IMG/VR virus record: IMGVR_UViG_2675903650_000003
Location: 1-10,471 of that record
DNA length: 10,471 bases
Source of the DNA: a virus
Lineage: Duplodnaviria; Heunggongvirae; Uroviricota; Caudoviricetes
Strand: one strand, 5' to 3'
Positions within the stretch are counted from its first letter, which is position 1; each line of letters opens with the position of its first letter. Positions 1 to 10,471 of this stretch are shown piece by piece. The translations under genes and the position numbers were made by a program. Below the pieces are notes generated by a model. It worked only from the letters and a program-made list of their open reading frames with translations. It was not told the DNA's origin and ran no database searches.

Positions 1-50
1 GTGGATCACTTTTCATCCGTCGTTGACACTCCCATGAAAAGACGCACGGT

Positions 51-359
51 ATGCGGGGCTGGGAATGTATTGTTGACGGTGTATCGGGCTTTGATATCAA
101 ACAAGATAACCAGCGAACCTTCTCAATTTCTCTCGAAAGAGCAAGCGGTACTGTTGAAGTTAAGTCCTTTGACATCCCGGTAACTATCTATCGCGATGTA
201 TTCAAATCTGGTACCGAATATCAACCTGGCGATACGGTCACATGGGGTGGTTGTATGTGGCATTGCAACGAGAAAACATGCGACAAGCCAGGTGAGACAG
301 GATCGAAAGGATGGACGCTTGCTGTTAAGAAAGGGCGAGATCTGAGGGATAAGCCATGA
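51..359 (+). CDS. Hypothetical small protein (102 aa) upstream of the connector gene; contains a C-x2-H-C-x4-C motif
   Basis: First ATG after the in-frame stop at 24-26. Its stop overlaps the ATG of the next gene (ATGA at 356-359), indicating translational coupling. The translation has protein-like composition. Shine-Dalgarno is weak. Function unknown. Confidence 0.45.
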   Translation: MRGWECIVDGVSGFDIKQDNQRTFSISLERASGTVEVKSFDIPVTIYRDVFKSGTEYQPGDTVTWGGCMWHCNEKTCDKPGETGSKGWTLAVKKGRDLRDKP

Positions 360-682
360 TTGAACTGGTGACGCTCGAAGAGGCTAAGTTGCATCTCCGT
401 ATTGACGACGATTACGGAGATTCAGACCTTACCTTAAAAATTCAGGGCGGCAGCGCAGCAATACTTTCCTACATTCAGGGAAGTCGCGCGTTAGTCGTGG
501 ATGATTCAGGAAAGCTTATTGATGGTGAACCGCTAACTCGCGTTCAGACGGCCCTGCTGGTTCTTCTTGGCTATCTTGACCGTAACCGCGGCGGCGAAGA
601 AGAAGAAAAGTTGAAACAGGGGGAACTTCCTTTTTCTGTATCAATGCTGATTTACGACCTCCGTAAGCCGACAATTATTTAA
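356..682 (+). CDS. Head-tail connector protein (phage gp6-like)
   Basis: 108-aa product with N-terminal LEEAKLHLRIDDDYGDSDL followed by helical ALLVLLGYLDRNRGG, which I recognise as the gp6-like connector pattern. Located immediately upstream of the head-tail adaptor and tail completion genes. Confidence 0.7.
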   Translation: MIELVTLEEAKLHLRIDDDYGDSDLTLKIQGGSAAILSYIQGSRALVVDDSGKLIDGEPLTRVQTALLVLLGYLDRNRGGEEEEKLKQGELPFSVSMLIYDLRKPTII

Positions 683-752
683 GGGGCATGTATGGCATGC
701 GCAGGATGTGCCAGACGGCGCGAGTGGATTAAAAAGTGGACGAGGATTGCCT

Positions 753-947
753 ATGAACGAGCAGCAGGTAAACGAACTAACGGCGGCACTGAAAGCGCTG
801 GCAACGTCTCAACTGAAACAGGCAGAAGCGATAAACCGTCTGGCTCAGGCGGATGAAACACTGATATCTCTGATTGCCAAAACGCTCGTTGATGAAATTG
901 ATGATGAGCTACCACCGCAGACCTATCTTGATGGTAAGCCGAGGTAA
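753..947 (+). CDS. Hypothetical small acidic protein (64 aa; alternative GTG start at 708 would give 79 aa)
   Basis: ATG at 753 is preceded by GAGG at 741-744. The GTG at 708 has AGGA only 2 nt upstream, so it is less likely. Product is helical and acidic with no recognisable motif. Stop at 945-947 lies 2 nt before the next gene start. Confidence 0.45.
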   Translation: MNEQQVNELTAALKALATSQLKQAEAINRLAQADETLISLIAKTLVDEIDDELPPQTYLDGKPR

Positions 948-949
948 TC

Positions 950-1282
950 GTGGAGTTTGCTAAACTGCGTCACCGCATCACTATTCAGCGACGAACAGCC
1001 ACCCAGTCACCAACCACAGGGGCAATGGAATACACCTGGAATGACCTTGCAGAGGTGTGGGGTAACGTGGTTGCCTCATCGGTCAGGGATTTCATTACAG
1101 CCCAGGCATCAAACGTAAAAGTAACGGCCAGAATCACTATCCGATACCGGGAAGATATCCAGGAGAAAGACCGTATTCTTTTCCGTGGCAAAATCTACAG
1201 CATTGAGGGGATTCTTCCTGACCCTGATAGTGGGCTCGAATATCTTACGCTTCCGTGCTCAGAGGGGGTAAGGGATGGTTGA
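950..1282 (+). CDS. Head-tail adaptor / head closure protein (SPP1 gp16-like, lambda FII-like position)
   Basis: GTG start at 950 preceded by GAGG at 941-944. 110-aa product with KDRILFRGKIYSIEGILPDPDSGLEYLTLPCSE, resembling the conserved core of head-tail joining proteins. Synteny supports the call. Confidence 0.65.
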   Translation: MEFAKLRHRITIQRRTATQSPTTGAMEYTWNDLAEVWGNVVASSVRDFITAQASNVKVTARITIRYREDIQEKDRILFRGKIYSIEGILPDPDSGLEYLTLPCSEGVRDG

Positions 1283-1760
1283 TAGCATTGATTTTAAGCT
1301 TGAAGGTGTAGATTCACTGCTTGGTAAGTTAGAAGCCATTACCTCAGAAACTAAGCGCAAAACAGGGCGCTCCGCACTGAGGAAAGCAGGAAACGTTATC
1401 GTAACTCAGATAAAGAGAAACGCAGAGCGACTCGACGATCCTCACACCGCACGTAGCATTGCTGATAACGCCGCGCTGCGCTGGAATGGTCGTATGTTTA
1501 AACAAACCGGTGATCTTGCCTTCAGGATAGGCATTCTTCAGGGAGCCGTTTTAAAAAAGCATCCAAGCACTGCGAAAGATGCCCCCACTCCTCACTGGCG
1601 TCTTCTTGAGTTTGGCACTGAAAAGATGGCAGCAAAACCGCTCGTTCGTGCTGCTGCAAATTCCAGACTGATAGAGGTTTTCAACACCTTCTCTGTTAAC
1701 TATGAAGCGGGGATTGACCGAGCTATCAAACGAGCACAGAAGAAAGGAGAGACGGCATGA
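1275..1760 (+). CDS. Tail completion protein, HK97 gp10 family (lambda Z-like position)
   Basis: 161-aa product containing WRLLEFGTEKMAAKPLVRAA, the EFGT signature I associate with the HK97 gp10 family. Overlaps the upstream gene by 8 nt and the downstream gene by 4 nt. Confidence 0.7.
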   Translation: MVDSIDFKLEGVDSLLGKLEAITSETKRKTGRSALRKAGNVIVTQIKRNAERLDDPHTARSIADNAALRWNGRMFKQTGDLAFRIGILQGAVLKKHPSTAKDAPTPHWRLLEFGTEKMAAKPLVRAAANSRLIEVFNTFSVNYEAGIDRAIKRAQKKGETA

Positions 1761-2122
1761 TTGCTCCTATTTTTCCTGTTTGCGCGTCGAGTCCTGAAGT
1801 CACTACTTTACTCGGAAGCAATCCGGTAAGAATTTACCCTTTCGGAATTCAGGACGATAATGTTGTTTATCCATACGCCGTCTGGCAGAACGTCAGCGGC
1901 TCTCCTGAAAATTTCCTTAACCAACGACCAGATGCGGACATTTATTCGCTTCAGGTTGATATCTATGCCGATACCCCTGATGAGGCGATTGCTGTAGCTC
2001 AAGCCATGCGTAATGCGATTGAGGTAAAAGCCAACATTGTTCGCTGGGGTAATCAGACGCGAGACCCTGAGACGCTCAGGTATCGATATTCTTTCGACGT
2101 TGACTGGATAGTCAACCGATAA
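1757..2122 (+). CDS. Tail terminator / tail completion protein (DUF3168-like, lambda U-like position)
   Basis: 121-aa product with RIYPFG...VVYPYAVW...LQVDIYA pattern. Position immediately upstream of the major tail protein gene. ATGA overlap with the preceding gene. Confidence 0.55.
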
Positions 2123-2134
2123 CAAACCTTCCAC

Positions 2135-2158
2135 AACCGGCCTTGAGCCGGTTTTTTT
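2135..2158 (+). terminator. Rho-independent terminator or attenuator between the tail terminator and major tail protein genes
   Basis: Perfect 7-bp stem AACCGGC (2135-2141) / GCCGGTT (2147-2153) with 5-nt loop, running into a run of seven T (2152-2158). Followed by GGAG at 2165-2168 and ATG at 2175. Confidence 0.6.
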
Positions 2159-2174
2159 ATACCCGGAGATAATT

Positions 2175-2672
2175 ATGTCAGTAGTGACTCAAGGCACTCA
2201 GATGTACGTTCTGAATAACGGCGTGGTCAGTGAAGTTGAATGTATTACTTCATTCTCACCAGGTAGTAGCCCGGCAGATCAAATTGAAGATACCTGTCTG
2301 AGCGAAACCAATACCCGTTCTTATAAAAAAGGTCTGCGCACCCCGGGTCAGGCAACCGTTGCTCTTAACGCCGACCCGGCAAACGCCAGTCACGTAATGC
2401 TGAGCAACCTGGCTGAATCAAGCGACCAGACCAACCTGACCTTCGCTATAGGCTGGGCCGATGGTACTGCAGATCCTACTGCTGCAACAGTCGGTGACCC
2501 TGATGCAGTTGATGGTCTGTCTCTTCCAGATACCCGTACCTGGTATGTATTCCAGGGTTATGTATCAGATTTCCCGTTTGATTTTCAGGCCAATACGGTA
2601 GTTCAGACTTCCGCGACTATTCAGCGTTCCGGCCAGGGCGTCTGGGTTCCTAAAGCACAGCCAACCAGCTAA
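2175..2672 (+). CDS. Major tail (tube) protein
   Basis: 165-aa product, rich in T/S/G/A/V and of likely beta-rich composition. Good RBS. Flanked upstream by a terminator and downstream by a stable hairpin. Occupies the lambda V position directly upstream of the G/GT chaperone and tape measure genes. Confidence 0.7.
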
Positions 2673-2692
2673 ACGTAATAATCTGCCAACTA

Positions 2693-2708
2693 GCGGGGGT
2701 AACCCCGC
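2693..2708 (+). promoter_or_regulatory. GC-rich hairpin with GUAA (GNRA) tetraloop downstream of the major tail protein gene; no U-tract
   Basis: GCGGGG (2693-2698) pairs with CCCCGC (2703-2708) around loop GTAA. It is followed by AATAAGAGAG, not a T-run, so it looks like an mRNA stabilising or processing structure rather than a full terminator. Confidence 0.4.
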
Positions 2709-2724
2709 AATAAGAGAGTAATAA

Positions 2725-3102
2725 ATGAAACTGACTCTGGATTCATTAAAACAGGCTGGTGCATTCACTGGGAGACCTGTTGAGAAGGAGATTACCTGGA
2801 AGCAGAGTGATAAGGAAATTACCGCTACCGTTTATATCCGACCTATGGGTTATCACGACGCAGTATCTACTGTTCTGTCAGCCGCGGGAAAGATTGATGG
2901 TGTTGCCGGACGTATCGCATCATCCATTTGTGATGAGAACGGGAATCCTGTTTTTACTGTTGCTGACATTACTGGTGAAGCAGACCCTGAGCGCGGTGCG
3001 CTCGACGGAAACCTTACCGTCGCTCTACTTGTCGCTATTCAGCAGGTTAACGACCTGGGAAAGACGAACTCAGCGCAGAAGACGAATTCTGGTGTGAATT
3101 AG
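2725..3102 (+). CDS. Tail assembly chaperone (lambda gpG-like), zero-frame product
   Basis: 125-aa acidic product directly upstream of the tape measure gene. RBS AAGAGAG at 2712-2718. Contains the slippery heptamer GGGAAAG near its 3' end. Confidence 0.8.
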   Translation: MKLTLDSLKQAGAFTGRPVEKEITWKQSDKEITATVYIRPMGYHDAVSTVLSAAGKIDGVAGRIASSICDENGNPVFTVADITGEADPERGALDGNLTVALLVAIQQVNDLGKTNSAQKTNSGVN

Positions 3103-3368
3103 TTCTCAACGGGATCGGCGGTCGCACCATTGCTGAAGCAAAAGAACGCGTTAGCGTTACAGAGTATCGCGACTGGGTTCTTTACCGTCAAAAGTACGGT
3201 AGCCTTAACGGAATGATGCGTACTGAGTGGGCCGCAGGCCTTATTTCTTCTGTGCTGGCTAACGTCAACCGTGGAAAAGATTCCCCCTCCTTCAAAGTAA
3301 CAGACTTCACACCACACATTAACGAGCCTTCCATTTCACTGGAGCAGGCTATGCAGGAGTGGACATAG
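2725..3368 (+). CDS. Tail assembly chaperone frameshift fusion product (lambda gpGT-like), made by -1 slip at 3057-3063
   Basis: The -1 frame (codons starting at positions divisible by 3) opens after a TAA at 3048-3050 and has no stop until TAG at 3366-3368, 2 nt before the tape measure ATG. Its translation reads ...DEFWCELVLNGIGGRTIAEAKERVSVTEYRDWVLYRQKYGSLNGMMRTEWAAGLISSVLANVNRGKDSPSFKVTDFTPHINEPSISLEQAMQEWT. No ATG-initiated + strand ORF of useful length covers 3103-3369. Confidence 0.65.
3057..3063 (+). promoter_or_regulatory. Programmed -1 ribosomal frameshift slippery heptamer G GGA AAG
   Basis: Heptamer GGGAAAG at 3057-3063 with zero-frame codons GGA (3058-3060) and AAG (3061-3063). 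This is the same heptamer as the lambda G/GT slip site. The -1 frame is open from 3051 to 3368. Confidence 0.65.
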
Positions 3369-3369
3369 C

Positions 3370-5895
3370 ATGGCTGGTAAATCCCTCGGAACGCTGACCA
3401 TTGACCTGATAGCTAAGGTTGGTGGATTTGTATCTGGTCTAAGCCAGGCTGAACGAGCATCTCAAAAATGGCGAAAACAGGTTCAGGCTGATGCAAAAGC
3501 GGCTGCGGTAGCATTTACTGGTTTTGCTACCGCGGCAAGTGCGGCAGCTATCGGTGTCGGTGTCGCCGGTTACAACCTGCTAAAAACAATGTCAAAACAG
3601 ATTACCGAAACAGACCGTTGGGCTAAGTCGCTCAATATGTCTACGCAGTCATTGCTTGCCTGGCAGTATGCAGCTGAAAAAGCTGGCGTATCCGGCGACC
3701 AGATGGCCGATATCTTCAAGGATATTGGCGATAAAATTGGCGATGCTGTACTGAATAAATCGGGTGAAGCAGTAGATGCTCTGAATGCACTCGGATTATC
3801 GGCTAAGAAATTATCCAGTGAATCACCAGATAAGCAGTTGCTGGCTATCAGCAATGCGCTCGGCAAGATTAAAACAAACGCTGAAAAGACCACAATCCTT
3901 GAAAGTCTTGGTAACGACCTTTCCAAGCTTCTCCCATTGCTTGATCAGGGAGGAGAAAAACTTCGTCAGTACATGGACGCGGCAAAACAGTTTGGCGTTG
4001 CCCCTGACGATGCTGATATCGAAAAGCTGGTAAAAGTAAACTCCCTGTTTGAGGACATGGAGACGCAGGTAAACGGTGTAAAAATTGAGATTGCCACCGG
4101 CCTGGCCAATGTTGACTTGTCAGGGTTACAGAACGCGATAACTGACATGGGGGATGTATTCAAAGATCCTCAGGTTATTCAGGGTTTGACAGACCTGGTT
4201 GGTGGTGTTGTTGATCTCGCGACCTGGCTTGTTAAAGTTGGTGCTGAAGCAGGGAAGCTAATTGACCTGTACAAAGGCGGTAAGGCTGTAGGTGACAATG
4301 CATCTGTAACTGATATAGAGCGCCGCCTCAACAATCTTAAAACTGATGTAGAAGATCAGGGATTCCTTGCCAGCTTTAACCGAATTGGTATGGACGTTGA
4401 CGGGAAAAAAGCTGAAATAGCGCAATTAGAACGCCGACTGTCCATCATGAAAGCCGGTAATAATCTTCCTCTCAGTCAGGCCACTGTAGGTGCGCCTTCT
4501 TCTTCCAGCAAAAATTATTCCTTAGGCTCAGGAGAAACTAACGGGAAAGCATCTCCAGATGCCGGGGCCAGAAAACTGGAGTCAGCATTTAAGTCTCTGG
4601 AAATGAGCTATCAGCGTCAGATAGCGCTGATTGACACAACTGGCAAAAAGAATCAGCAGGTAACCGAGCTTGAGAAGCTGCGTTTTGATTTTACATCTGG
4701 GAAATTAACAGGAATTAATGCAGCTCAGAAAGAGCGACTTGAGCAACTTGCTACTGAGATAGATCGCCTCAACTCACTTAAAAAAGCCAACGAAGAAAAT
4801 CTGAAACTTGTCGAATTTACCGCTAATTTACGTAAGCAAAATCAGAATGACCAGGCAGCTAATGATTCTGATTTTATCGGCGCAGGTATGGGAGACAAGA
4901 CTCGCCAGCGCATGAAGGAATTGCTGGATATCCATCGTAGTTTTCTCGACAGGCAGCAAGATCTACAGAAACAGTACCAAAGTGGTGATATAAGCAAATC
5001 GCTTTATGACCAGGAAACGGCAGCGTTACAGCAGGCGCTTGATGACCGTCTTGATATTCAGGAGGACTACTACAAAAAGTCTGATGCTCAGATGGGCGAC
5101 TGGCAAAGCGGGATAATGGACTCGTTGAACGATTATGCTGATAAATCAGCTGATTATTACCAGACTGCTGCAGATGCGATGACTTCTATTCTTGGTGGAG
5201 CAACCTCGGTTATTTCTGACAACCTTAATGACCTTGTGCACGGTGCAGAAGATTTAGGTGATTTCTTCAGTAATATTTTCTCTGGTCTTGGTGAAACAAT
5301 CATTAAAACCCTTTCTGATATGGCGGCGCAATGGCTGGTATATCAGGCAGTGCAATTGCTGGTAGGTAAATCCACTCAGGCAAGCGCAGCGGCATCAATG
5401 CTGGCAAACGCACAGGCATCATCTTTGCAGGCTCAAATCGCAGCATACGCATCGACAGCGGCAATTCCTATCGTTGGTCCCGCGCTTGCACCTGCAGCGA
5501 TGGCAACAGCTGCGGCAGTAACTGCACCACTTGTTGCAGCAGTTGGTACTTCTGCCCTGGCAGGTATGGCGCACGATGGTATTGATAGCGTCCCGGAAAC
5601 AGGAACATGGTTGCTCCAGAAAGGTGAGCGAGTTGTGACCTCTCAGACGTCAGCAAAGCTTGATGAAACACTGGACAGAGTAAATCAACAATCAACCAGC
5701 GGAGCAAGCTTCTCTCCCGTTATTAACATGAATGTTAACGGTGATCCGTCTGATACTCAGATCTCCATGATGAAGCAAGCCATGGCAGAGGGGGCAAAAC
5801 TTGGATATCAACAGGCAGCCAGCGACCTTGCCAGTGGGAAAGGTGACATTTCGAAAGCAATGATGCGCTGGAACACTAACAGGAGAACTGGTTAA
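3370..5895 (+). CDS. Tail tape measure protein (lambda gpH-like)
   Basis: 841-aa product. N-terminal region resembles the lambda-family tape measure domain. Long helical, coiled-coil-like middle. Ala/Gly-rich hydrophobic stretch near the C-terminus followed by WLLQKGERVV. Sits directly after G/GT and before the tail tip genes. Confidence 0.9.
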   Translation: MAGKSLGTLTIDLIAKVGGFVSGLSQAERASQKWRKQVQADAKAAAVAFTGFATAASAAAIGVGVAGYNLLKTMSKQITETDRWAKSLNMSTQSLLAWQYAAEKAGVSGDQMADIFKDIGDKIGDAVLNKSGEAVDALNALGLSAKKLSSESPDKQLLAISNALGKIKTNAEKTTILESLGNDLSKLLPLLDQGGEKLRQYMDAAKQFGVAPDDADIEKLVKVNSLFEDMETQVNGVKIEIATGLANVDLSGLQNAITDMGDVFKDPQVIQGLTDLVGGVVDLATWLVKVGAEAGKLIDLYKGGKAVGDNASVTDIERRLNNLKTDVEDQGFLASFNRIGMDVDGKKAEIAQLERRLSIMKAGNNLPLSQATVGAPSSSSKNYSLGSGETNGKASPDAGARKLESAFKSLEMSYQRQIALIDTTGKKNQQVTELEKLRFDFTSGKLTGINAAQKERLEQLATEIDRLNSLKKANEENLKLVEFTANLRKQNQNDQAANDSDFIGAGMGDKTRQRMKELLDIHRSFLDRQQDLQKQYQSGDISKSLYDQETAALQQALDDRLDIQEDYYKKSDAQMGDWQSGIMDSLNDYADKSADYYQTAADAMTSILGGATSVISDNLNDLVHGAEDLGDFFSNIFSGLGETIIKTLSDMAAQWLVYQAVQLLVGKSTQASAAASMLANAQASSLQAQIAAYASTAAIPIVGPALAPAAMATAAAVTAPLVAAVGTSALAGMAHDGIDSVPETGTWLLQKGERVVTSQTSAKLDETLDRVNQQSTSGASFSPVINMNVNGDPSDTQISMMKQAMAEGAKLGYQQAASDLASGKGDISKAMMRWNTNRRTG

Positions 5896-6368
5896 TGGCT
5901 AAAACGACCAGCATTAACTATCCGAATGATTACCTTCCTGTTCCATTGCAGGAAGGGTTCGGGTTAAAGCCAGTTAGCCCATTACTGAGAACCGAACTCA
6001 CATCCGGCAGGGCGAGGCAGAGGAGATTATATACTTCAACGCCAACTCAGGCCTCGGTTGCATGGCTGCTTACGGATCCGGAAGCTCAACTATTTGAGGT
6101 ATGGTTCAGGGACACCATTAAGGATGGCGCTGACTGGTTTAACATGCCTCTTCGATCTCCGTTAGGCGTTGTTGATGTTTATGTCTGTCGTTTCGTGGAT
6201 ATCTATGAGGGGCCGACAATTGAAGGCGGAAACTACTGGCGCTACACGGCCACGTTGGAATTGTGGGAAAGGCCTGTTCTGGCTCCTGGCTGGGCTGATT
6301 TTCCTGATTACATTATCAACAGCAGCATCATTGATATTGCGCTTAACAGGGAGTGGCCTGAGCCATGA
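5895..6368 (+). CDS. Minor tail protein, lambda gpM-like
   Basis: 157-aa product. Segment TQASVAWLLTDPEAQLFEVWFRDTIKDGADWFNMP aligns by eye with my recollection of the lambda gpM core (SVTLSVPREEATVLESFLEEHGGWKSFLWTP). TAATG overlap with the tape measure stop. First gene after the tape measure gene. Confidence 0.6.
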   Translation: MAKTTSINYPNDYLPVPLQEGFGLKPVSPLLRTELTSGRARQRRLYTSTPTQASVAWLLTDPEAQLFEVWFRDTIKDGADWFNMPLRSPLGVVDVYVCRFVDIYEGPTIEGGNYWRYTATLELWERPVLAPGWADFPDYIINSSIIDIALNREWPEP

Positions 6369-6847
6369 CGATTCTAAATAGGCTGTATGCCTCATCCGGG
6401 GAAGAGGTGATCATCGAAACCCTGCAAATAAACATCGGTACTGGTGTTTATTATCTTTGTAAAGGCTTCGATGACATCACCGCAACAACCGAAAGTGGCG
6501 TGGTGGTAACCTTTCAGGCTGCGGCTATTGATATTGCCCTTCCAGCAAGAAACAGCGATGGTACACAAGATTTGCAGTTTGCCATTGATAACATAGACGG
6601 GATTACTTCCACCGCCATACGGAATGCTCTGGATAACCTTTCAGAGGCATCGCTGACATATCGTAACTATGTCTCCACGGACCTCAGTGCTCCGGCATCT
6701 GTACCGTACACGCTGGCGATTAAAAGCGGGTCATGGACATCCATGCAGGCGCAGATTACTGCCGGATATATGAACGTTCTTGATACCGCATGGCCGCGCC
6801 ACCGATACACCCTCCCGTATTACCCCGGCCTTCGTTACATGAGTTAA
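6365..6847 (+). CDS. Minor tail protein, lambda gpL-like N-terminal domain only
   Basis: 160-aa product. VIIETLQINIGTGVYYLCKGF...VVVTFQAAAIDIALPARNSDGTQDLQFAIDN resembles my recollection of the lambda gpL N-terminal pattern (VVLWEIDLTEVGGERYFFCN...VTWQGRQYQPYPIQGSGFELNGKGTSTRPTLTVSN). It has a single Cys and no C-terminal Cys-rich region. ATGA overlap with the upstream gene. Confidence 0.55.
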   Translation: MTILNRLYASSGEEVIIETLQINIGTGVYYLCKGFDDITATTESGVVVTFQAAAIDIALPARNSDGTQDLQFAIDNIDGITSTAIRNALDNLSEASLTYRNYVSTDLSAPASVPYTLAIKSGSWTSMQAQITAGYMNVLDTAWPRHRYTLPYYPGLRYMS

Positions 6848-6856
6848 GGAGCAACA

Positions 6857-7237
6857 ATGTTCAATCCTGATAAATACCTTTCTGTCATATTGCAGAAGGG
6901 CGGTCGCACTTATCCTGAACTTGACTGCTTCGGCATAGTGAACGAGGTACGAAAAGACCTGGGGCTACCACTGTGGCCAGATTTTTCAGGTATAACAAAA
7001 GACGGCGGAGGTTTAAACCGAGAGGCCAGAAAGCTCATGCTTTCTCTGGAAAAATGCGCGCCGTGTATAGGTGCCGGTGCCGCCTGTTATTCCGGGTCAA
7101 CCGTTACTCATGTTGGTGTAGTCGTTGAAATTAACGGCCAATTGCATGTCGCAGAGTGCAACCCAGGAGTGAACGTTACCTTCCTTCCTGTCTCGCGTTT
7201 CAAACGTCGTTTTGTCAAAGTGGAGTTCTGGAAGTGA
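6857..7237 (+). CDS. Tail tip assembly protein with NlpC/P60-like papain-fold domain (lambda gpK-like, minimal)
   Basis: 126-aa product. LDCFGIV (Cys24, codon 6926-6928) matches the NlpC/P60 DCSG-type catalytic Cys motif. THVGVVV (His85, 7109-7111) and LHVAE (His97, 7145-7147) match the downstream His-containing motifs. Strong RBS AAGGAG at 6845-6850. Confidence 0.7.
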   Translation: MFNPDKYLSVILQKGGRTYPELDCFGIVNEVRKDLGLPLWPDFSGITKDGGGLNREARKLMLSLEKCAPCIGAGAACYSGSTVTHVGVVVEINGQLHVAECNPGVNVTFLPVSRFKRRFVKVEFWK

Positions 7238-9951
7238 CTATCAGAATTTATCCTTCACGGCTGCCTGGCGAGCCACTCGAAACTCATGAACATGGCGCAG
7301 TAACTATCCATCAGTGGCTTGCGAAGAACGTTCAGGGCTATAAGCCTGATATGAAGCACCCGATCACCGTTGATGTTGATGGAGAGAACATACCGCCTCA
7401 GGCATGGTTTGAATTTGCTATCAAATCAGACAGTGATGTCAGAATTTACCCTGTCCCTTATGGCGCTGTAGCTCTTGTCTGGATTGCCGTTGCTGTATCA
7501 GTTGCATCAGTCGCGTATGCTCTTTTCTTTGCTCCTGGTGTTGGTGACCTTGGCGGTTATTCATCAGGAACGGGAAACCCTCTTGATGTAAATCCTGCTA
7601 AAGCGAATAACGCAAAATTGGGCGACCCGATACGTGAGTTATTTGGACGAAGCCGTATTTATCCTGACTATGCAGTGCAGCCTGTAACAAGATTCTCAGT
7701 TGATGATCCAACGGTAATGACAGTTGAAATGTTTGTTGTTATGGGGAGAGGGCGTTTTTCATTTGGGGATGGCGATATTCGTGTAGGGTCAACTCCAATT
7801 GCTTCTCTTGGTGATGGGTTTAACTACACAGTGTATCAACCCGGGCAAAGCGTTAGTGGAGATCAACGATCAGAAAACTGGTTCAATTCCACAGAGGTTG
7901 GGGGAACCGCATCTGGTTCTGGTCTTGATATGGCGCAAACCGCGCCGGACACGGAAGATGTTGTTGCTAATTCGCTAACCGTTTCCGGACCAACAATAAC
8001 ATTTAATGGGCTGAGCACGGATGATGGAGATGAAACAACAAATGATCTTCCAGATACATGGACTGTTGGTGCAATTGTTGAGTTAATTGTTCCTGATTCC
8101 TATGTGGTAACTAATGATGGTGCTTACAGCAGAATTACCAGTGACACGCTGGAGGAAATAGCTCCTTATGTTGGGATGCCTGTAACTCTCTGGTACAACA
8201 GCATTGATTACCAACTATTCATTGCTGATTTTATACCTCACTCTGAGCCAGTCGGCGAAGATGTGATTACCGCATCAATAACCCTCGCTTACGATAGCGC
8301 CACTGGAACTCCGTTCACCGGGATTCCTGAAGGTTATGTCAGGCTATCTGTTTCCCATTCCGGAAGCGAATATAAGATTCTTGATATAGATGGTAGCTCT
8401 GTAACTCTGGAGCGGGTTATTGATGGCAGCGTTGATCCGTCATGGCCTGGATTTTCACCGCGCACAGTTCTTGATTTTGAAGCCAACGGTTTAAATGAGA
8501 ACGATAGTTGGATGGGACCTTTTCTGGCGTGCCCAGAAAATGAAGTTGTTGATATGTTCGAAGTAAACTTCTTCTTCCCAAACGGGATTTGTGGGTATAA
8601 CAAAAAAGGGAACAAACAATACCGTGAGGTAAAGTGGGAGATTCAGTACCGGCCATATGGTTCAGGCGTCGGGTGGATAAGTAAAACCGGATCGTACTAC
8701 CTCCAGAACATTAACGGACTGGGATTTACCGAAAGAATCACGCTGGATACGCCTGCGCTAGTAGAGGTGAGAGCTCGCCGCACGAACGAGCAGGGACAGA
8801 ATAACAGTCGCGATAACATGTACTGGCAGTCATTGCGAGGACGTTTGTTGTCACGGCCAGCATCGTATACTGGCGTCACCACAATTGCGGTTACTGTGGA
8901 AACTGGCGGTAAACTGGCAGCGCAGTCAGATCGCCGCGTAAACGTTGTAGCCACGCGAGTTTATGATTCTGGTGTGTCAAGGAGCATTTCTGGTGCTCTG
9001 TATCATATAGGTAATGAGTTGGGGCTAGCGATGGACCGTGAAGCTATTGACTCACTAGAAACTACTTACTGGACCCCTGGCAGTGAATTCTTTGACTATG
9101 CCACTACGGATTCTGTTTCTGCGCTGGAGATGCTTCAGAAGGTGACAAATGCAGGAAAAAGTTACTTCCTTCTTACCGATGGTCTGGCATCTGTAGCAAG
9201 GGAAGGTGTGAAAACGTGGACTGGAATAATCAGCCCACAGGAGATGACTGATCCGCTTCAGACTGCTTTCGTTGCTCCGTCAGCAGATGACTATGATGGT
9301 GTGGATGTTACATATATCAACGGCACTACATGGGCTGAAGAGACGGTGCAGTGCAGAACATCAGATAACCCAACTCCGGTAAAGATTGAGGACTATACGC
9401 TTGATGGTGTTCTTGACCAGGACCGTGCTTATCAGATAGGTATGCGACGTCTGATGAAGTACCTTCAGCAACGTTTGACTCATACCACAACAACGGAAAT
9501 GGATGCTCTCTGTTATAACGTTGGCGACAGGGTAGTATTCACGGATGATATTCCTGGTAGCAAAACAATAAGCACGTTGATTGAGGATATGAGTACAAGT
9601 GATGGCGTAACGACTATTACAGTATCAGAACCACTTGACTGGACATTCAACAACCCACGTGCATTGATACGCTATCAGGATGGTTCTGCTTCGGATTTGC
9701 TGGCAGCTACAAGGGTAAATGAATATGTTCTATCAGTAATAGAACAAGCAAAATTCAGCAATATCATGCTAAACGCCCCATCCATTGAATCGCCTCGTCT
9801 GATTTTCTGCGAGTCATCCCGTGTTGGATATAGCGCATTAATTTCAGAGATAGCACCGCAATCTGATGGAACATGTCAGGTAACGGCAAAAGAGTATCGC
9901 GACACTTTCTATCAGTACGATAACGCTACCTACCCCGGCAATGTAGCTTAA
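7234..9951 (+). CDS. Tail tip protein: lambda gpI-like N-terminal region fused in frame to a gpJ-like central tail fibre / host specificity protein
   Basis: Probable GTG start at 7234, overlapping the upstream stop (GTGA) with GGAG at 7222-7225. The track's ATG at 7156 lies inside the K-like gene. Residues 1-80 look ubiquitin-like, followed by a hydrophobic segment GAVALVWIAVAVSVASVAYALFFAPGV (about 7462-7545), then NNAKLGDPIRELFGRSRIY, which resembles lambda gpI (NVLPVLYGEMRVGS). The rest is a long beta-rich protein with J-like motifs (RRTNEQGQNNSRDNMYWQSLRGRLL). No stop codon separates the two parts. Confidence 0.7.
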   Translation: MTIRIYPSRLPGEPLETHEHGAVTIHQWLAKNVQGYKPDMKHPITVDVDGENIPPQAWFEFAIKSDSDVRIYPVPYGAVALVWIAVAVSVASVAYALFFAPGVGDLGGYSSGTGNPLDVNPAKANNAKLGDPIRELFGRSRIYPDYAVQPVTRFSVDDPTVMTVEMFVVMGRGRFSFGDGDIRVGSTPIASLGDGFNYTVYQPGQSVSGDQRSENWFNSTEVGGTASGSGLDMAQTAPDTEDVVANSLTVSGPTITFNGLSTDDGDETTNDLPDTWTVGAIVELIVPDSYVVTNDGAYSRITSDTLEEIAPYVGMPVTLWYNSIDYQLFIADFIPHSEPVGEDVITASITLAYDSATGTPFTGIPEGYVRLSVSHSGSEYKILDIDGSSVTLERVIDGSVDPSWPGFSPRTVLDFEANGLNENDSWMGPFLACPENEVVDMFEVNFFFPNGICGYNKKGNKQYREVKWEIQYRPYGSGVGWISKTGSYYLQNINGLGFTERITLDTPALVEVRARRTNEQGQNNSRDNMYWQSLRGRLLSRPASYTGVTTIAVTVETGGKLAAQSDRRVNVVATRVYDSGVSRSISGALYHIGNELGLAMDREAIDSLETTYWTPGSEFFDYATTDSVSALEMLQKVTNAGKSYFLLTDGLASVAREGVKTWTGIISPQEMTDPLQTAFVAPSADDYDGVDVTYINGTTWAEETVQCRTSDNPTPVKIEDYTLDGVLDQDRAYQIGMRRLMKYLQQRLTHTTTTEMDALCYNVGDRVVFTDDIPGSKTISTLIEDMSTSDGVTTITVSEPLDWTFNNPRALIRYQDGSASDLLAATRVNEYVLSVIEQAKFSNIMLNAPSIESPRLIFCESSRVGYSALISEIAPQSDGTCQVTAKEYRDTFYQYDNATYPGNVA

Positions 9952-9967
9952 TCCAAACATCAATATT

Positions 9968-9992
9968 ACCCGCTACGGCGGGTTTTTCTCTT
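9968..9992 (+). terminator. Rho-independent terminator downstream of the I/J-like gene
   Basis: Stem ACCCGC (9968-9973) / GCGGGT (9978-9983) with loop TACG, followed by TTTTTCTCTT. Next gene has GAGG at 9995-9998 and ATG at 10004. Confidence 0.6.
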
Positions 9993-10003
9993 ATGAGGCA
10001 AAT

Positions 10004-10465
10004 ATGACGACTTATAATACTGGCAATCCGCTGGGGTCTTCTGCTGCAAAAGATTTGTACGATAACGCCCAGAACTTCGATCATCTTTCTAATGATCAAT
10101 CCAATGAGTTATGGCCTGATCGTTTTGGTAATCCACGTCTTACTTGGCATGGTATGGAGTCAAAGTACAAAGAATCATTGTCAAAAATGGGTTGGATACT
10201 AATAAAATCATTTCAGGTTGGCGCAGAGATAACCTTGACTAATCAGGCATTGCACGACGAAACCTCTGGCGAGTATTACCGTTGGGATGGTGTATTACCT
10301 AAAACCGTTCCTGCTGGCTCTACGCCAGAAACGACAGGTGGGATTGGATTAGGTGCGTGGGTTAGCGTGGGTGATGCTTCATTGCGTGGAGATCTACTCA
10401 GCTTAGATGGTGAAAAATATATCGGTATCTGTCCTGACATTGCGGTGATGCTGCCAACTTACTGA
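10004..10465 (+). CDS. Hypothetical protein resembling the N-terminal anchor region of a tail fibre or tailspike (153 aa)
   Basis: Good RBS and ATG. AT-rich relative to upstream genes. Motifs GNPLGSSAAKDLYDNAQNFDHLSN and GIGLGAWVSVGDASLRGDLLS are reminiscent of N-terminal adaptor regions of phage fibres or spikes, but this is recalled similarity, not verified. In-frame TGA at 10463-10465, only 6 nt before the window ends. Confidence 0.5.
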   Translation: MTTYNTGNPLGSSAAKDLYDNAQNFDHLSNDQSNELWPDRFGNPRLTWHGMESKYKESLSKMGWILIKSFQVGAEITLTNQALHDETSGEYYRWDGVLPKTVPAGSTPETTGGIGLGAWVSVGDASLRGDLLSLDGEKYIGICPDIAVMLPTY

Positions 10466-10471
10466 TTTAGT

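Follow-up and report, generated by a model that had tools for sequence, protein, structure and literature searches.

One long late phage transcript gives hundreds of capsid and tube subunits and only a few copies of the proteins encoded next to them, a difference for which translation initiation and, in the case of G/GT, frameshifting are the usual explanations. Terminators within such transcripts have also been recorded. In the GenBank records of phages HK140, mEpX2 and mEp235, the gap that separates gp11 from gp12, the major tail subunit gene, carries the annotation 'rho-independent terminator', and a second terminator is annotated after the major head gene. In the phage L genome paper, a terminator was predicted where the procapsid module ends, within a late operon that is antiterminated and has a single promoter; the authors considered intra-late-operon terminators to be common and 'not unique to L', stated that their roles 'are not known', and proposed fail-safe and partial-termination options for them. 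Among bacterial operons, an intergenic 3' hairpin in malEFG protects the gene that is needed in excess, and the major pilin mRNA of papBA possesses, after RNase E cleavage, a 5' hairpin and a 3' terminator hairpin (PMC5927463). The stoichiometry of cellulosome subunits is reported to be set in a related way, by selective RNA processing and stabilisation (PMC4423207). The locus described here lies in a 10,471-nucleotide (nt) stretch of a Caudoviricetes virus (IMG/VR record IMGVR_UViG_2675903650_000003, positions 1 to 10,471), hereafter the window, which covers the head-tail joining genes and the tail genes of a temperate siphophage of the HK022/HK97-like kind. Two hairpins bracket the gene for its major tail (tube) protein (MTP), hairpin 1 upstream and hairpin 2 downstream. 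Both are real rather than chance structures and are under selection, and the bracket, a terminator before the gene and a mostly U-less hairpin after it, is by its sequence pattern a recurrent design around high-copy virion genes. The upstream terminator itself is not new, as it is the element already annotated in HK140, mEpX2 and mEp235, where it occupies the same slot as hairpin 1.

The features of the bracketed locus are as follows.

1757-2122, + strand: tail terminator gene, DUF3168-type (phrog_78, E = 1.8e-24; open reading frame (ORF) list; homologue named DUF3168 by RefSeq).
2120-2122, + strand: TAA stop codon of the tail terminator gene, 12 nt 5' of hairpin 1.
2135-2153, + strand: hairpin 1, AACCGGC-CUUGA-GCCGGUU, 7 base pairs, the stem of a predicted intrinsic terminator (sequence, consensus scan, folding, conservation).
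2152-2160, + strand: U tract (T7, then AT), whose first two T are able to pair with AA at 2135-2136.
2165-2168, + strand: Shine-Dalgarno (SD) sequence GGAG of the MTP gene, 6 nt 5' of the ATG; GGAGA is kept in the alignment of upstream regions.
2175-2672, + strand: MTP gene, 165 amino acids, ATG at 2175 (phrog_158, E = 7e-34; 73% amino acid identity to HK022 gp12).
2693-2708, + strand: hairpin 2, GCGGGG-GUAA-CCCCGC, with a GNRA loop and without a U tract; proposed 3' exonuclease barrier (sequence, folding, comparison).

Hairpin 1 has all the sequence features of an intrinsic (Rho-independent) terminator, and polymerase release at this site is predicted. The stem sought was G+C-rich, about 5-14 base pairs long and closed by a loop of 3-8 nt. 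Hairpin 1 possesses such a stem (2135-2141/2147-2153; 7 base pairs, five of them G-C) with the short loop CTTGA, and a U-rich tract follows directly on its 3' side, where a run of seven T (2152-2158) and then AT adjoin the stem on the transcribed strand. In a consensus scan, 2135-2153 was the top-ranked terminator-like site on the + strand of the window. Its folding energy of -10.9 kcal/mol (z -3.4) was equalled by 2 of 200 dinucleotide shuffles. Read on the minus strand, the stem leads into GTGGAAGG, with no T tract, so that the terminator is unidirectional and a bidirectional or antisense role was rejected. The T run ends at 2158 and the MTP ATG is at 2175; the roughly 16 nt that separate them hold only the SD sequence. 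When the surroundings of hairpin 1 were inspected by eye for the RNase E motif RN/WUU (PMC5927463), the only similar match was on the 3' side, at the junction of stem and U tract (GG/UUU). As a separate observation, the loop (2142-2146) is unusually conserved in relatives, as C(C/T/A)TG(A/T/C), and the loop CTTGA is the same in the window and in Pseudomonas phage D3 (L299 6450-6454) despite one flipped stem pair.

Hairpin 2 is of a different kind. It begins 20 nt 3' of the MTP stop codon and ends 16 nt 5' of the ATG of the chaperone gene G (2725). Directly 3' of it lies AAUAAGAGAG, without a U tract, so it lacks this part of a terminator; the sequence that follows it reads AATAAGAGAG. Its position, just 3' of the stop codon of a gene needed in excess, its stability and the retention of this position in relatives are those of a malE-malF-type stem-loop. 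The folding energy is -14.1 kcal/mol (z -3.4 against dinucleotide shuffles). A preliminary description of this DNA had proposed a textbook intrinsic terminator at 2135-2158, between the tail terminator and MTP genes, and a GC-rich, GUAA-capped hairpin without a U-tract at 2693-2708, after the MTP gene. The anatomy, folding and conservation of the first and the sequence and folding of the second agree with this, and its identification of the two genes is confirmed by PHROGs (phrog_78, phrog_158). It had also made its idea depend on both structures being stable in their transcript context. Folding of transcript windows of 200-1300 nt bore this out for hairpin 2, with a pair probability of about 1.0 in all of them, while that of hairpin 1 varied with context from 0.29 to 0.95 because GCCUUGAG can pair with MTP codons 5-7. 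The partial population of hairpin 1 has little weight for co-transcriptional termination but is relevant for any later role of the structure.

Conservation was examined in 138 loci with MTP homologues of 37-100% protein identity, drawn from species-representative genomes and IMG/VR. Under a strict rule, which asked for a hairpin and at least five T ending 15-35 nt before the MTP ATG, the upstream hairpin and U tract were found in 124 of the 138 loci, down to about 52% protein identity, and at least six of the 14 loci that failed the rule show an upstream terminator by eye. Loci with the element come from Citrobacter, Escherichia, Erwinia, Pantoea, Rouxiella, Pseudomonas, Halomonas and Marinobacter; in Pseudomonas phage D3 the same slot holds AACCCGC-CTTGA-GCGGGTT followed by T7, which is unannotated in the D3 record. 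When 85 different upstream regions were aligned, 91.5% of the cells in the stem were paired, as opposed to 26-60% with the partners slid. One pair was G-C in 54 sequences and C-G in 28, a compensatory change, while the T tract was nearly invariant and the block U tract-AU-(N)4-GGAGA was conserved. Additionally, a 25-nt core, ACCGGCCTTGAGCCGGTTTTTTTAT, is identical to that of HK022, whereas the flanking genes are 76% and 68.5% identical, and hence the terminator core is more conserved than its neighbours. Within the 45 nt that precede the MTP start, the most stable hairpin had a median energy of -10.3 kcal/mol in 67 non-identical loci, compared with -2.8 in random 45-nt windows (Mann-Whitney p = 3e-36). 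For the 45 nt after the MTP stop, the corresponding medians were -12.0 kcal/mol in 83 non-identical loci and -2.8 in random windows of the same loci (p = 3e-28).

In enterobacterial relatives, the downstream hairpin is mostly kept in position and form and varies in sequence. Most of their loci have a homologue of hairpin 2, placed 2-25 nt 3' of the MTP stop codon, and 37 distinct sequences occupy this one position. Outside the stem the sequence is hardly alignable, with 50% identity to HK022. Among 24 tetraloops, 15 belong to two classes (10 GNRA and 5 UNCG), against about 5% expected. Specifically, within the GCGGGG stem family, to which the stem of the window belongs, there are five GNRA loops (GAAA, GCAA, GUAA, GCGA and GGAA) plus one GAAG. 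Variation within GNRA on one stem indicates that the GNRA loop itself is under selection, which would most simply be selection for stability. The Pseudomonas group lacks the hairpin: its gap is too small, and the 'best hairpin' there lands in the coding sequence of G. In some lineages (L007, L034, L052 and L138) the hairpin carries a U tract.

The relation of the bracket to other genes was assessed by a census of 64 related contigs with 10-kb flanks, in which + strand ORFs and intergenic hairpins of -9 kcal/mol or below were recorded and the neighbouring proteins were grouped into 280 clusters. Hairpins with a U tract were classed as T and those without as H. The results for the principal genes were as follows.

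MTP: 64 loci; preceded by T in 59; followed by a hairpin in 57 (46 H, 11 T).
Protease-capsid fusion: 36 loci; preceded by T in 33; followed by a hairpin in 30 (28 H, 2 T).
HK97-type capsid: 19 loci; preceded by T in 0; followed by a hairpin in 16 (10 H, 6 T).
Separate head protease: 12 loci; preceded by T in 7; followed by a hairpin in 0.
TipJ-like: 47 loci; preceded by T in 0; followed by a hairpin in 40 (38 T, 2 H), that is, before the tailspike or fibre gene.
Tape measure: 64 loci; preceded by T in 16; followed by a hairpin in 1.

The bracket pattern was not found around the other sizeable clusters among the 280, and the remaining hits were small or partial. All 59 hairpins upstream of MTP have a U tract, as against 11 of the 57 downstream, and this asymmetry argues that the U tract is selected upstream only. 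In the clade of the window, the fusion of protease and major capsid protein (MCP) is preceded by a U-tract terminator 23 nt before its ATG (21947-21964 in the Escherichia coli TST3 prophage, L139; 4591-4608 in L141) and is followed, 7 nt after its stop codon, by GGCGGGG-GAAA-CCCCGCC (L139 23933-23950; L141 6577-6594). One contig with a 100% identical MTP combines all of these elements. Its capsid gene has a T 23 nt before it and a GAAA hairpin after it, and in its tail region a T lies 21 nt before the MTP gene, a GCAA hairpin after it, and a further T 19 nt before the tailspike gene. The spacing from hairpin end to ATG is nearly constant at the three genes, namely 21 nt for MTP, 23 nt for MCP and 20-21 nt for the tailspike, within a range of 15-35 nt across the MTP family.

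A pair of the same kind is found at the capsid gene E of phage lambda (NC_001416, L140). Gene E is preceded, about 15-20 nt before its ATG, by AAGGCCGC-CUGU-GCGGCUU and a U7 tract (record 6080-6134), and its stop codon is followed by the UUCG-capped G+C hairpin AUGGCCC-UUCG-GGGCCAU (record 7161-7201). No discussion of these hairpins was found in the literature searched.

In about a quarter of the related loci (16 of 64), a terminator also lies about 20 nt before the tape measure gene. This was considered as a break in the link to copy number and set aside, because in the loci examined individually (L171, L175, L179 and L184) the terminator follows an extra gene of 125-392 amino acids, inserted in the manner of a moron between the G/T chaperone genes and the tape measure gene. 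The extra gene sits at the position of the HK97 gene 15 moron; one of these genes is phrog_1353, of unknown function.

In its relatives, the locus is predicted to belong to an antiterminated operon. The E. coli TST3 prophage, which shares 90% nucleotide identity over the region, is lambdoid. Just before its lysis genes it encodes a DUF1133/Phage_antitermQ protein (PF06530, 36 bits against a cut-off of 26), and a strong tR'-like terminator, AAGAACCCGCTACAGAGCGGGTTTTT, lies 47 nt downstream of this Q gene (L139 11894-12544). In this prophage an IS5-family element is inserted between the Q gene with its terminator and the holin genes. Three IMG/VR contigs with a 96% identical MTP have the same Q type. 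Given a Q-type antiterminator in these close relatives, polymerase is expected to read through hairpin 1 during lytic growth. Virulent relatives, which would bear on the idea of a fail-safe in lysogens, were looked for among 78 isolated phages that have an MTP of this family. These are HK022-like, D3-like or of the Vibrio anguillarum group; we take them all to be temperate, and no clearly virulent member was seen.

Based on these observations, a combined mechanism can be proposed, to which we give an even chance of being correct: hairpin 1 would act as a fail-safe terminator but be passed by Q-modified polymerase, and a decay-resistant segment of mRNA would be bounded by the two hairpins. The window would be part of a lambdoid late operon transcribed by a Q-modified, terminator-resistant RNA polymerase, so that lytic transcription would pass hairpin 1, and hairpin 1 would not set the ratio of tube to neighbouring mRNA by termination during lytic growth. 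Instead, it may stop polymerases that lack Q, whether in the lysogen, after leakage past tR' or from spurious internal starts, and this fail-safe would stand directly before the most heavily translated tail gene. Within the read-through mRNA, the two hairpins may delimit the tube cistron as a separately decaying segment. Endonucleolytic cleavage would occur in the A/U-rich spacers, after which hairpin 2 would block 3'-to-5' exonucleases, like the malE-malF structure. By this analogy, 3' stabilisation by hairpin 2 is plausible. Hairpin 1 could act either as a 5' cap, as in papBA, or as a 3' protector of the upstream fragment. The tube mRNA would then outlive the mRNA of the flanking low-copy genes, and strong translation initiation may also be favoured by the unstructured, U-rich leader that separates hairpin 1 from the SD sequence.

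A broader form of this proposal is offered tentatively and is somewhat doubtful. According to it, the series of terminator, strong ribosome-binding site and gene, and U-less tetraloop hairpin could be a cassette, portable and dedicated to expression of the high-copy virion genes (capsid and tube) of antiterminated late operons, from enterobacterial to Pseudomonas phages and including lambda E, and it might serve stoichiometry largely through selective RNA processing and stabilisation, as well as silence in the lysogen.

Other explanations differ mainly in what they make of the U tract and of the U-less hairpin. The preliminary description suggested that hairpin 1 terminates a fraction of the late transcripts while hairpin 2 stabilises or processes the 3' end, raising tube protein relative to its neighbours. 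That both structures are real and conserved, that capsid genes are bracketed too, and that partial termination is one of the two options in the phage L paper all speak for it. Termination before the MTP gene, however, would lower tube mRNA relative to the low-copy connector genes upstream, which is the wrong direction, and would starve all the downstream tail genes as well; the interval from the U tract to the SD sequence is too short for a promoter, and the Q-type antiterminator of close relatives predicts read-through. This explanation is consequently very unlikely. What survives of the stoichiometry idea is its link to high-copy genes, borne out by the brackets at the major capsid gene and lambda E, while the partial-termination mechanism is not supported as stated. 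The hairpins could instead serve for insulation and nothing else, with hairpin 1, its twins at capsid and tailspike genes and the moron terminators stopping only polymerases that are not antiterminated, hairpin 2 being a decayed or weak terminator, and stoichiometry remaining unaffected. The strict conservation of the upstream U tract, the U tracts on hairpin 2 in the four lineages named above, the terminators of the same type after morons before the tape measure gene, and the fail-safe option named in the phage L paper are all in keeping with this. It leaves unexplained, however, why U-less hairpins should follow specifically MCP and MTP among 280 protein clusters, and why their loops should be constrained to GNRA or UNCG, and it appears unlikely.

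U-rich enhancers 5' of the SD sequence are known, for example at atpE and rnd. Hairpin 1 could similarly be part of a translation module in which it keeps the U-rich tract single-stranded as a ribosome standby site or S1-binding enhancer just 5' of the SD sequence, its likeness to a terminator being secondary. The module would supply the very rapid initiation required by capsid and tube genes. The constant distance from hairpin to ATG at the MTP, MCP and tailspike genes and the conserved block that joins the U tract to GGAGA would fit such a module. The same spacing, however, is also the minimum into which a U tract and an SD sequence fit, a stem with a U tract directly beside it is precisely what a terminator needs, tailspike genes and moron ends carry the same elements, and lambda V attains high output without one. 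We regard a primarily translational role as unlikely, though as an alternative to be taken seriously. Lastly, since lambdoid genomes are mosaic with junctions at gene boundaries, the hairpins might have no function and be chance palindromes or scars of module recombination. The retention of position and structure across orders of the Gammaproteobacteria, the compensatory changes, the 37 different downstream stems and a terminator core more conserved than the flanking genes make this view close to untenable.

Several points weigh against the combined mechanism. The Q gene was seen in relatives, and the 10.5-kb window does not extend to that region. Lambda gene V has no flanking hairpins, its gaps being 7 and 15 nt, and therefore the bracket is not required for high output of a tube protein. 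Terminators of the same type also precede tailspike genes, whose products are taken to be made in fewer copies than the tube and capsid subunits, and follow the morons that precede the tape measure gene, so that high-copy genes are not the only setting in which they occur. Hairpin 1 is 29-95% populated at equilibrium, depending on context, which weakens a post-transcriptional capping role. Moreover, termination, read-through, processing sites and half-lives are all inferred, and Sampson et al. in 1988 reportedly attributed the yields of lambda late proteins mainly to translation initiation.

Some further readings of hairpin 1 were rejected. An attenuator or riboswitch with a competing antiterminator would call for an alternative pairing, and no conserved one was found 5' of the terminator or overlapping it. 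Pairing of GCCUUGAG, which comprises loop and arm, with MTP codons 5-7 is seen in the clade of the window and is not conserved over 82 loci, in which complementarity between the hairpin and the MTP initiation region had a median z of -0.9 (+0.2 against other MTP windows). A switch formed by the 3' arm and a downstream copy of the 5' arm was, like this pairing, dismissed as a general mechanism because that copy lies 3' of the U tract and the alternative reaches only -4.7 kcal/mol in the window, compared with -10.9, with a median z of -1.4. The short copy itself recurs between the U tract and the SD sequence (2162-2166 in the window and homologous positions, alignment columns about 45-52), as CCGG in enterics and as GCCCG(C) in Pseudomonas, Halomonas and D3. 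With this copy an alternative hairpin can form, in which the U tract is looped out and the SD sequence is contacted; this is the minimum free energy structure in D3 and weak in the window, and its statistical support is weak. An internal promoter after hairpin 1 has no space before the SD sequence. The only nearby sigma-70-like site on the + strand, at 1833-1861, is weak, and promoter-like sites in the window are fewer than in shuffles. A moron or moron relic at hairpin 1 is excluded by the distance of 12 nt from the tail terminator stop codon to the hairpin, which holds no ORF. In an Rfam scan of the whole window, neither hairpin 1 nor hairpin 2 had a match, and one sub-threshold hit lay elsewhere (4823-4879, E = 0.9).

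Based on the ORF list, PHROGs and Pfam, the genes of the window, all of which lie on the + strand, follow the order head closure, gp10-like, tail terminator, MTP, chaperone G, tape measure, tail-tip proteins and tailspike N-terminus. The features downstream of the bracket are as follows.

2725-3102, + strand: tail assembly chaperone G, with a -1 frame that runs on to 3368 to give the GT fusion (phrog_1749, E = 3e-46; ORFs).
3057-3063, + strand: slippery heptamer G GGA AAG, lambda-type, for the G/GT -1 frameshift (read from sequence; in frame with the ORF starting at 2725).
3370-5895, + strand: tape measure gene (phrog_2854).
9968-9988, + strand: third predicted terminator, ACCCGC-UACG-GCGGGU followed by UUUUC, set between the TipJ-like gene (16 nt upstream) and the tailspike ATG at 10004 (20 nt downstream).

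The heptamer bears out the frameshift at G/GT that the preliminary description had presupposed. The third terminator was also returned by the consensus terminator scan, and its region folds at -14.5 kcal/mol (z -3.3); downstream of it is the N-terminus of the tailspike, Tail_spike_N (PF18668). Its stem core and loop match those of the pre-capsid terminator of the E. coli prophage (L139 21947-21964). With hairpin 1 and hairpin 2, the third terminator (9968-9983) completes the set of + strand intergenic hairpins of -9 kcal/mol or below in the window. Two successive minor-tail genes each contain a further stable hairpin near the start, CCTTCCTGTTCCATTGCAGGAAGG (5933-5956, -14.2 kcal/mol; 38 nt into its gene) and CCTTTCTGTCATATTGCAGAAGGG (6877-6900, -10.6 kcal/mol; 20 nt into its gene). 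The two hairpins are alike and code for the similar peptides YLPVPLQEG and YLSVILQKG; both are kept in the E. coli prophage. At the 5' end of the window, an ORF of 102 amino acids at 51-359, 5' of the gp6-like connector gene, had no Pfam match; its stop is at 359, so that it shares 4 nt with the gene that follows, whose ATG is at 356.

If the proposed mechanism is true, a conserved RNA cassette around high-copy genes would add a layer at the mRNA level to the control of virion stoichiometry. It would also explain the presence of terminators inside antiterminated operons and give a function to those of the phage L type. The pattern of a terminator about 20 nt before the ATG and a tetraloop hairpin after the stop codon helps annotators to find major capsid and tube genes in prophages. 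In phage engineering, the deletion of 'useless' intergenic hairpins could alter yields or the silence of the prophage.

In comparison with the known systems, the closest counterpart is HK022, which has the same terminator sequence as HK140, mEpX2 and mEp235. The gp12 gene of the HK022 type is also followed by a GNRA-capped hairpin, GGGCG-GCAA-CGCCC, which is unannotated in the records and whose stem is completely unlike that of hairpin 2. The head modules differ, in that the HK022 type has a separate protease and MCP while the clade of the window has the protease-MCP fusion with an upstream terminator of its own. Lambda E resembles the MTP gene of the window in having a terminator-like hairpin before it and a capped hairpin after it; its operon is Q-antiterminated, as that of the window is expected to be. 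In lambda, however, the pair flanks the capsid gene, and there is none at the tube gene V. Phage L is P22-like and thus another type of phage, its terminator is in another position, and no paired U-less hairpin has been described for it. Full-text literature searches on phage late-operon terminators found no transcript mapping for these phages. The terminators of HK97-like morons are like hairpin 1 in that strong terminators are tolerated within a tail operon; they are unlike it in that morons are accompanied by an inserted ORF and a promoter, neither of which lies beside hairpin 1. For malEFG and papBA, ends have been mapped and half-lives measured, whereas a stabilised tube segment is a prediction. 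Moreover, the 5' element of the window is a full terminator with a U tract, which the models for malEFG and papBA do not need.

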